This document shows positions 1,814-3,313 of a DNA stretch of 64,000 nucleotides, piece by piece; position 1 is the first letter of the stretch; each line of letters opens with the position of its first letter. The stretch lies in assembly GCA_000092065.1 (NCBI GenBank), contig CP000581.1; one strand, written 5' to 3'. This DNA is from Ostreococcus lucimarinus (lineage: Eukaryota). Position numbers and translations under genes: made by a program. The notes under the pieces were generated by a model. The model saw only the letters and a list, made by a program, of their open reading frames with translations, had not been told where the DNA came from and searched no databases.

Positions 1814-3313
1814 ATGGCGACGGCCGCGCTCGGGGGTTTAGGGCGACTTCGCGCGGACGCGCGCGCGAAGACGACGCGCGCGAAGACGCGACGACGCGCG
1901 AACGCGCGGGGATCGCGGGCGAAGCTCGGTGCGCTGCAAACGCCGGTCGAGGGCGCGGATGGGGGCGCGAGCGCGGGAGAGGGGGGGTTGGAGGCGCGCG
2001 CGACGCCGACGCGAGGGAGGGACGCGGCGCGCGCCGCGAGCGCGCGGTCTTTGACGCGCGCGTCGGTCGTGGCGATGCGATCGGACGGTGCGCGAGGTTC
2101 AAATGGATCGGGTGGTGCGTTGAAGGAGATTTCGTGGACGCACTGCGTGGAGAATTTGGGTAAAGGCGATCCGGGAGTCGAGCACGACTACAAGAGGGTC
2201 GTCTTCGTGACGCCCGACGACGGTTTCATCATGGGCGCGCGCAAGACGCTGTACCACTTGAACGGCTGTCCTTGTCCGACGTGTAACGTCTTCAGATGTC
2301 GCGTGCGAAACGGCGTCGATATTAGCGGTGAGCCGATCAAGGTTGTGGTTATTAGCGAGAAGGAGTTTGAAACCTTGAAAGCCGTGGGTACGGTGAAGGA
2401 CATGGCCAAGGTGGAACAGTTGCGACGCCGTCGAATCGGTACCGCGAACACTGGTAAGGTGCCCTGGAATAAAGGCGGCAAGCATAGCAAGGAAACGATC
2501 GAAAAAATTCGCGCGACGACGCTCATGCACATGGCGAATCCCGCGTACAGAGAGCGCCTAAAGGCGTCGTACAACGGATCCAACGCTCGTCATTCCGAGT
2601 ACACGCGAGCGAAGATCAAGAGGGCGTCGGTGGAAAGAGCGCGGGCGCGAAAGCTAGAGACAGCTGGCTTGGAGTCCAAACAGGTCTGGGGCCTGAAGAG
2701 AGGTATGAACGGCGCGGCTTCAGCGGGGATATTCGTTCGCCGAAACTCCGCGGTGATGACGGTGACCTTTGGAGTCAACGGCACCGCCGACATCGCACGG
2801 CTTCGACAACGTCAAAAGGATGAAGAAAAGGTACGCCTAAAGACGCAACGCGAGTTGAAGAAGCAGCTCGTCGCCACGCTCGTCTTGAAGCGTCGAGCGA
2901 TGCGGAAAGTGAAGCCAAAGGTGGCCAACAAGCGAACGCGCGAGCACCGCGCGAAGATCTCTAAAGCCATCGCCGACAAGTGGCGCGATCCAGAGTACAG
3001 CGCGAAAATGCGCAAAAAACGCAAAAATTCCGCGGCTAGCGCCGCTTCTCAACAGCATCCGAGCGTCGATCCGGCGAAGAAGAAACTTCTCGCCGAAATC
3101 AAAGCGATGTATCTCAAGGCTGACGCCGCGGTGAAAACGTTGCGCGCTCGCGCCGACAACGGCCTCACCGTCGATCCAGCGATGCTCGCGCAAGCCACTC
3201 AAACGCGCAAGCAAACGCGCACGATGCTCGAGACCGTGCGAAAGAACATAGAACAGGAGTTCCAAGCTCGAGACGCCGCCGCCGCGGCGAAAAAGACGGC
3301 GCGCCCTCGGTGA
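1814..3313 (+). CDS. Nuclear protein built from tandem NUMOD3-like motifs (homing-endonuclease-associated DNA-binding modules) with a presequence-like N-terminus.
   Basis: The 499-aa ORF carries five or more repeats of the G-K-x-H/R-S-x-E-T/H-x-x-K-I pattern: GKHSKETIEKIRA, ARHSEYTRAKIKRA, KRTREHRAKISKAIADKW and SAKMRKKRKNSAAS. The N-terminal 90 aa are Ala/Arg/Gly-rich. Confidence 0.5.
   Translation: MATAALGGLGRLRADARAKTTRAKTRRRANARGSRAKLGALQTPVEGADGGASAGEGGLEARATPTRGRDAARAASARSLTRASVVAMRSDGARGSNGSGGALKEISWTHCVENLGKGDPGVEHDYKRVVFVTPDDGFIMGARKTLYHLNGCPCPTCNVFRCRVRNGVDISGEPIKVVVISEKEFETLKAVGTVKDMAKVEQLRRRRIGTANTGKVPWNKGGKHSKETIEKIRATTLMHMANPAYRERLKASYNGSNARHSEYTRAKIKRASVERARARKLETAGLESKQVWGLKRGMNGAASAGIFVRRNSAVMTVTFGVNGTADIARLRQRQKDEEKVRLKTQRELKKQLVATLVLKRRAMRKVKPKVANKRTREHRAKISKAIADKWRDPEYSAKMRKKRKNSAASAASQQHPSVDPAKKKLLAEIKAMYLKADAAVKTLRARADNGLTVDPAMLAQATQTRKQTRTMLETVRKNIEQEFQARDAAAAAKKTARPR

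Follow-up and report, generated by a model that had tools for sequence, protein, structure and literature searches.

In the homing endonuclease I-TevI, a zinc-binding element followed by NUMOD3 helices makes up an extended DNA-binding region, and the NUMOD3 helix contacts DNA in the I-TevI-DNA complex. The NUMOD3 motif (Pfam PF07460) has been described in I-BmoI and I-TevI (PMC3664794, PMC11201747) and is the sequence-specific DNA-binding helix of I-TevI (PMC11201747). Hypothetical proteins containing NUMOD3 have also been reported from Plasmodium (PFC0925w and PY00434; PMC1636048). In plants, over-expression of the chrysanthemum NUMOD3 gene ClNUM1 in tobacco altered growth and stress traits, with no localisation given (PMC11201747), and the homologues of Arabidopsis AT1G53800 had not been investigated according to a 2023 paper (PMC9965582). 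Here we describe a nuclear gene of Ostreococcus lucimarinus that encodes an array of NUMOD3 units with no recognisable nuclease. The gene occupies positions 1814 to 3313 of a 64,000-nucleotide stretch of contig CP000581.1 (assembly GCA_000092065.1), which is called the window below.

We read the 499-residue product of this gene as a non-catalytic, probably organelle-targeted protein, with the plastid as its most likely destination, that would bind DNA with helices of the homing-endonuclease kind. This composite reading is given somewhat better than an even chance. A public protein collection contains an identical 499-residue protein (P0001), whose 90% cluster includes O. lucimarinus CCE9901 XP_001415574.1 (UniRef A4RRI4), labelled "Nuclease associated modular domain-containing protein" in UniProt. 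Because the cluster holds this entry, the window can be assigned to the nuclear genome of O. lucimarinus, and the gene had already been annotated as containing NUMOD3. The GC content of the region (0.64-0.66) and neighbours that include Sin3 and GAS8-type genes agree with its earlier description as a GC-rich, nuclear-style gene. The gene and the parts of its product are arranged as follows.

1814-3313, plus strand: complete coding sequence of the NUMOD3 protein, from the list of open reading frames (ORFs), the 100% identical database protein, an alignment of 12 orthologues and synteny with O. tauri.
1814-2125, plus strand: presequence-like N-terminal extension (aa 1-104), poorly conserved, from composition, predicted local distance difference test (pLDDT) values below 50 and the orthologue alignment.
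2177-2413, plus strand: N-terminal module without a Pfam model (aa 122-200), predicted fold beta-beta-beta-alpha-beta-alpha-beta.
2405-2473, plus strand: NUMOD3 half unit A (aa 198-220, EQLRRRRIGTANTGK / AKVEQLRRRRIGTANTGKVPWNK), from Pfam (fragment aa ~211-227, 16 bits) and family-wide invariant residues.
2474-2569, plus strand: NUMOD3 unit B (aa 221-252, GGKHSKETIEKIRATTLMHMANPAYRERLKAS) with a helical 'DP.YR' extension, from Pfam (fragment aa 215-234, 22.6 bits) and a unit hidden Markov model (HMM; aa 221-236, 4.2 bits).
2582-2638, plus strand: NUMOD3 unit C (aa 257-275, NARHSEYTRAKIKRASVER), from the unit HMM (aa 259-268, 9.3 bits, the top score of three).
2672-2803, plus strand: middle segment (aa 287-330), conserved in Mamiellales only, 'W G.K.G.NG..S.G.F.RR.S.V..V.FG', with a low-confidence predicted structure.
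2927-3013, plus strand: NUMOD3 unit D with a 'KW.DP.Y' extension (aa 372-400, NKRTREHRAKISKAIADKWRDPEYSAKMR), from Pfam (fragment aa 374-390, 15 bits) and the unit HMM (aa 379-391, 7.1 bits).
3068-3298, plus strand: antiparallel helical hairpin at the C-terminus (aa 419-495), modelled with the highest confidence of any part (pLDDT about 90).

The NUMOD3 motifs reported by the first-pass annotation of the window were confirmed by Pfam, whose PF07460 profile matched the whole protein with 41.4 bits (E = 1.4e-10) against a curated gathering cut-off of 20.4 bits. The match comprised two stretches, the better of which aligned aa 205-233 to profile positions 9-37; the half unit covers profile positions 9-25. 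The ARHSEYTRAKIKRA fragment of unit C, when scanned alone, fell under the Pfam filters, and scans of the 499-residue protein against NCBIfam and PHROGs gave no matches. The unit HMM provided an independent measure, being 21 residues long and built from 17 units of ochrophyte NUMOD3-array proteins, none of which belongs to the green family described below. The best of 200 shuffles of the protein's own composition scored 4.1 bits with this model, which the first unit scored (aa 221-236) barely exceeds.

By these profiles, the array consists of three full NUMOD3 units, of the recurring type 'G-x-x-H-S-x-E-T-[KR]-x-K-[IM]-S', and one half unit. The five or more repeats listed in the first-pass annotation were an over-count: 'SAKMRKKRK' belongs to the tail of unit D, in its 'KW.DP.Y' extension, and is not a separate unit, and the half unit had been missed. 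Half unit A is truncated N-terminally and retains the C-terminal half of a unit together with an invariant PWNKG linker. The predicted model places the helices of unit B at aa 226-238 and 243-252. A 22-sequence alignment that extends from Ostreococcus to angiosperms revealed that E201, R204, R205, I208, W218, N219, G221, I232, and W390 are invariant. Residues R259, H260, S261, T264, K267, and I268 of unit C are kept among the Ostreococcus orthologues, and in unit D, the invariant W390 is accompanied by H378, I382, D392, P393, and Y395, which show almost no variation between algae and land plants.

No nuclease domain was found in the protein by Pfam, PHROGs or fold search, neither a GIY-YIG or HNH domain nor any other, and NUMOD3 was the sole match above the curated cut-off when nine diverse homologues were scanned with Pfam. 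A fold search with the whole protein returned generic helical hairpins only. The lack of a nuclease makes "domesticated DNA-binding array" a fair description.

The region that precedes the array (aa 122-200) contains the motif 'GF.(V/M)G-x6-H-x3-C-x-C-P-x-C-N', and the consensus among chlorophyte members of the family is 'GF.VG-x5-6-H-x3-C-x-C-P-N-C-N..R'. In an alignment of 27 module sequences, G141, H148, C152, C154, P155, and C157 were invariant and G137, F138, N158, and R161 nearly so. Besides the window protein, 18 homologues or fragments that were retrieved each had one to three occurrences of the pattern H-x(2,5)-C-x-C-x2-C. A 'GF.V'-type hairpin stands before the fully conserved copies of the module, and the ligand spacing recurs in the duplicates. 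Among the homologues considered (P0056-P0088, P0113, and P0114), the chlorophyte members have one to three copies and the land-plant representatives none. We interpret the module as a probable His-Cys3 zinc-binding site with H148, C152, C154, and C157 as ligands, on the strength of this residue pattern. Neither the window protein nor nine homologues had a Pfam model matching the module, a module profile found no significant match among Protein Data Bank (PDB) sequences, and a fold search against PDB and BFVD found no significant structural neighbour. Because none of these comparisons gave a match, the module has no nuclease fold that can be recognised, whether GIY-YIG, HNH, or another. The module could be added to domain databases, in which it is not annotated.

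The first-pass annotation had treated the gene as an oddity. It is instead the Ostreococcus orthologue of a family found throughout the Viridiplantae whose NUMOD3 label was already in UniProt. In a search of 1.84 billion representative proteins, a profile built from 13 orthologues retrieved 474 relatives with E<=1e-3, of which 109 had E<=1e-10. The full-length matches (E from 1e-58 to 1e-39) were other Mamiellales and included one cluster with Micromonas commoda XP_002507109.1; weaker but clear matches were other chlorophyte-like proteins and land-plant proteins, among them Ceratopteris KAH7316129.1 (P0079) and Cuscuta CAH9055751.1 (P0085, E=4e-16). The M. commoda, Ceratopteris, and Cuscuta proteins all bear the name 'Nuclease associated modular domain-containing protein'. 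When the Cuscuta protein was used as the seed, 585 proteins were found at E<=1e-20, and the 120 listed were from land plants, almost all of them angiosperms, with annotations such as 'hypothetical protein like AT1G53800' and the misnomer 'Muscle M-line assembly protein unc-89'. A word-indexed homologue search with a broad alignment recovered Ostreococcus proteins only. From these sequence matches, the 499-residue protein is almost certainly a member of the AT1G53800-like family of Viridiplantae.

The 22-sequence alignment showed a common plan in which a variable, presequence-like N-terminus is followed by one or more chlorophyte-only modules, a NUMOD3 cluster, a lineage-specific middle, a later unit and the hairpin. 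The family cluster reads 'E..RR.RI..AN.GK.PWNKG.KHS.ET..KIR..T..AM.DP..R..L....HS..T+.KI' and the later unit 'KS.EHR.KIS.AI..KW.DP.Y'. The window protein has this core, with 'E..RR.RI..AN.GK.PWNKG.KHS.ET..KI', then 'HR.KIS.AI..KW.DP.Y', then the hairpin, which aligns throughout the family and in which A436 and A439 are nearly invariant. The middle segment has pLDDT values below 50 at aa 292-320, and land-plant homologues have a different segment at this place. In 93 of the 99 angiosperm orthologues (P0265-P0379), the final 40 residues contain a further motif, 'K.W(V/I)RGRLV(E/D)', and 'W(V/I)RGRLV' is also present in four chlorophyte homologues (P0068, P0072, P0075, and P0080). It was not found in the Ostreococcus proteins, whose C-terminal end is '...ARPR'; its absence is a lineage-specific loss and is compatible with family membership. 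A land-plant-like representative, P0074, carries an additional stretch (residues ~60-190; ICSTHGIKGELKVMFLTDIPEQQF...) N-terminal to its NUMOD3 region, which is reminiscent of a RimM 16S-rRNA-processing domain and could be either a true fusion or a merged gene model.

The 499-residue ORF runs uninterrupted from ATG to stop in a single exon. The deposited GenBank/RefSeq model (XP_001415574.1) has 360 residues, equal to a start at Met140, and so drops aa 1-139 (window 1814-2231). A start at Met140 removes the presequence-like region and splits the conserved His-Cys3 module ahead of its ligands. Twelve orthologues from other Ostreococcus-like genomes, with 56-91% identity in the alignment, align end to end with the 499-residue ORF. 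Because this alignment extends from the 'GGLGR' motif (aa 7-11), common to most of the aligned Ostreococcus orthologues, through to the C-terminal 'PR', it supports the full ORF from 1814, and the deposited model appears to be truncated at its N-terminus. Orthologues of the full protein include O. tauri XP_022838272.1 and M. commoda XP_002507109.1. No second copy of the gene turned up, although no genome-wide paralogue search was made.

The N-terminal extension of the window protein abounds in Arg, Ala, and Gly and has few acidic residues, with 1 Asp/Glu and 12 Arg/Lys in its first 45 residues. Taken alone, and in a GC-rich genome, these counts are weak evidence for a presequence. The composition recurs across the family: Asp and Glu make up 1.5-6% of the first 50 residues and 11-15% of the rest in all four taxon groups compared (11 Ostreococcus, 6 other Mamiellales, 4 other chlorophyte, and 99 land-plant proteins). 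In the angiosperm orthologues, the first 60 residues are acid-poor and contain Ser and Thr, most of 14 N-termini have '(G)LMIRAVATLEK' about 65-75 residues from the full-length start, and an acidic patch follows 'IRAVAT' (25% Asp+Glu at aa 101-120). Stromal processing sites have the form I/V-x-A/C, then A. The angiosperm layout resembles a typical chloroplast transit peptide. The presequence-like character proposed earlier for the N-terminus holds only as a matter of composition in this protein; across the family it is seen in composition and, in angiosperms, in the 'IRAVAT' motif. We consider organelle targeting rather probable, and the plastid is the most likely target.

A mechanism can be proposed on this basis. 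The acid-poor N-terminal ~100 residues would act as a presequence that directs the protein to an organelle, the plastid being the most likely one, and would be cut off on import. Each of the four NUMOD3 units would supply a short helix that contacts DNA like the NUMOD3 helix of I-TevI, so that the array would follow an extended stretch of DNA. The preceding His-Cys3 module would bind zinc and touch nucleic acid or a partner protein as well. The C-terminal hairpin, a candidate oligomerisation or partner-binding element in the predicted model, would mediate self-association or the binding of a partner. The role of the protein would lie in the organisation, maintenance or expression of organelle DNA and not in intron homing or splicing. 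DNA binding, by analogy with the homing endonucleases, seems likely.

Several observations weigh against an organellar DNA-binding protein. The whole-protein model is poor (mean pLDDT 60). Arg and Lys account for 22% of the protein, and its 'KKRK' and 'RRRR' clusters could serve as nuclear localisation signals; moreover, at a genomic GC content of 60-66%, composition by itself can produce N-termini rich in Arg, Ala, and Gly. Basic helices like those of NUMOD3 could bind RNA as well as DNA. Because profiles of the NUMOD3 region of the family gave nothing significant against PDB sequences and did not reach I-TevI, the analogy with I-TevI rests on the Pfam family assignment only. Our literature search found no functional study of the family, and no experimental localisation or phenotype of a member, apart from the over-expression of ClNUM1 in tobacco.

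The most probable alternative is a nuclear DNA-binding protein, either a transcription factor or a chromatin protein, with the basic N-terminus as a disordered extension driven by composition. The Arg/Lys content and basic clusters would suit such a protein, as would a GC-rich coding sequence that favours Arg, Ala, and Gly, and the changes in growth and stress traits caused by ClNUM1 in tobacco were read as a regulatory role (PMC11201747). Composition is a poor explanation for the angiosperm proteins, in which the acid-poor N-terminus, 'IRAVAT', and the acidic patch are typical of a chloroplast transit peptide and are not GC-driven. The same N-terminal composition is seen across four groups of taxa with genomes of apparently different composition, and similar arrays occur in the ochrophytes Rhizochromulina and Octactis, the N-terminus of one such array protein (P0101) resembling a signal peptide. 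We regard a nuclear protein as possible but unlikely, and prefer an organellar one.

Less probable still is an organellar RNA-binding factor that acts in RNA processing or intron splicing, after the manner of the LAGLIDADG and CRM domains recruited in plants. Domesticated homing-endonuclease and maturase folds serve as plastid splicing factors in plants. A presequence-like N-terminus would also fit such a factor, and the gene stands head-to-head with an mTERF gene, a pairing kept in O. tauri; Pfam names mTERF after mitochondrial transcription termination factors. However, NUMOD3 is characterised as an element that contacts DNA, and the search for organellar group I introns that the first-pass annotation had suggested came out negative. 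The mitochondrial DNA of O. tauri and Micromonas is listed with neither group I nor group II introns (0 of each; PMC3873408, Table 1), and the chloroplast genomes of Ostreococcus and Micromonas are reported to be intron-free (PMC4194372). An intron-specific role is unlikely because the organelle genomes lack introns, yet the protein is conserved in these lineages, and the suggested part in organellar intron metabolism is not supported. A general RNA role independent of introns is still conceivable. Arabidopsis EMB3120 (At3g14900), a partner in the plastid MatK splicing complex that was considered as a NUMOD3 paralogue, proved not to be one: BLASTP gave E=1.9, and no NUMOD3 motif was present in the 399 of 611 residues compared, which lack the transit peptide and were taken from the supplement of PMC13172542.

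It is very improbable that the gene is a homing endonuclease, active or recently decayed, or a mobile element that entered the nuclear genome, perhaps of organellar or viral origin, although NUMOD3 usually accompanies GIY-YIG and HNH homing endonucleases (Pfam description; PMC11201747). The gene is not part of a group I intron or an intein, nor is it a phage or organelle gene of the free-standing mobile kind; it is a single-exon gene in a syntenic nuclear block. On O. tauri chromosome 1, the same order is found, namely mTERF(-), NUMOD3(+), Sin3, GAS, and PDZ-FKBP. Because the gene order is identical, the gene is not a mobile element but a stable part of the nuclear genome that has been inherited vertically, and the homing endonuclease explanation is effectively refuted. 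The weakest explanation, that the repeats are no real domain and merely reflect the low complexity or composition of a GC-rich ORF, could point to the CG-rich simple-sequence flanks and the many spurious overlapping ORFs of the region, but it is refuted by the Pfam E-value, by same-composition shuffles that never attain the observed unit scores, and by the invariance of specific residues, including Trp, Asn, and His, in the alignment from Ostreococcus to land plants.

The upstream neighbour of the NUMOD3 gene is the following, and the downstream genes are Sin3, a GAS8-like gene and PDZ-FKBP.

1-957 of the window, continuing to about 1300-1450 (L001 4801-6507), minus strand: mTERF-family gene, head-to-head with the NUMOD3 gene, from 86% identity to O. 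tauri mTERF.

The identity of 86% applies to aa 116-435 of the mTERF product. The head-to-head arrangement is kept in O. tauri, with an intergenic gap of about 490 bp, and the two genes may share a bidirectional promoter. The NUMOD3 protein is ~60% identical between O. lucimarinus and O. tauri and the adjoining mTERF 86% identical over the part compared; because of this difference, the NUMOD3 protein is taken to evolve noticeably faster outside its core motifs. The intergenic DNA on either side of the gene (window 1400-1810 and 3320-3700) is mostly (CG)n-like, 'gcgcgcgc/cgcgacg' simple sequence, and it yields many long spurious ORFs on both strands. Further along the window (13775-14806, plus strand) lies an ORF for ribosomal protein L2 (Pfam Ribosomal_L2_N and _C) with ~100 extra N-terminal residues, which we read as a probable nuclear gene for an organellar ribosomal protein.

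The NUMOD3 content of these proteins and the family itself were already known, being annotated in UniProt/InterPro-type resources, where the family is named but unstudied. The corrected unit count, the truncation of the deposited model, the family-wide architecture, the unannotated His-Cys3 module and the argument from intron-free genomes are new here. If the presequence is real, the family would add a novel class to the DNA-binding proteins of organelles, one built from the parts of homing endonucleases. Ostreococcus, with its intron-free organelle genomes and with no second copy seen, offers a clean system in which a general DNA role can be separated from an intron-related one. We put forward, tentatively and with doubt, that the family is an ancient and hitherto overlooked part of the core machinery which organises or maintains plastid or organelle DNA. 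It would have arisen from a domesticated homing-endonuclease DNA-binding array and acquired a zinc-fold fusion in chlorophytes.

Among known proteins, the closest in plan are the members of the family itself. The land-plant AT1G53800-like, M. commoda, and O. tauri proteins have the same order of elements as the window protein and likewise lack a nuclease. Chlorophyte members, including those of Ostreococcus, differ from land-plant representatives in their one to three His-Cys3 modules, in place of which the land-plant members have an additional NUMOD3 unit and a 'C..EW...IAE.AR.G' segment. Chrysanthemum ClNUM1 possibly belongs to the same family. This nuclease-less NUMOD3 family spans prasinophytes to angiosperms, and its sole published functional work is the over-expression of the chrysanthemum gene.

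Array proteins of ochrophyte type (P0089, P0101, P0133, P0154, P0180, P0188, and P0201) contain 4-5 NUMOD3 units of two alternating types. Two array proteins are named as ochrophyte and are transcriptome-derived (Rhizochromulina marina A0A7S2W8C9 and one from Octactis speculum); the others are marine sequences. P0101, the sole ochrophyte array protein scanned, had no nuclease, and its N-terminus, the only one read, has the hydrophobic stretch that resembles a signal peptide. Like the green family, the ochrophyte arrays and Plasmodium PFC0925w are eukaryotic (transcriptome or nuclear) and have several NUMOD3 units. The ochrophyte unit types 'GK.HSEETR.KIA..TR.AM' and 'HS..TR.KISEAIK.KW.DPEY' are those of the green family, but the ochrophyte arrays have more units (4-5) and lack both the His-Cys3 module and the C-terminal hairpin of the family. 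Ochrophytes, Plasmodium, and the green family are all plastid-bearing lineages, which is suggestive only, and the nuclease-less arrays of ochrophytes and apicomplexans might be counterparts in lineages with secondary plastids.

The window protein has the NUMOD3 motif in common with the DNA-binding domains of I-TevI and I-BmoI. It differs from these homing endonucleases in that it has no GIY-YIG catalytic domain, a terminal helix-turn-helix was not detected, and its gene sits stably in the nuclear genome and not on an intron. The zinc finger of I-TevI is of the Cys4 type, unlike the H-x3-C-x-C-x2-C motif that the window protein carries within a beta-beta-beta-alpha module. In general plan, the two are nonetheless parallel, as in both proteins a zinc-binding element, a probable one in the window protein, precedes the NUMOD3 helices.

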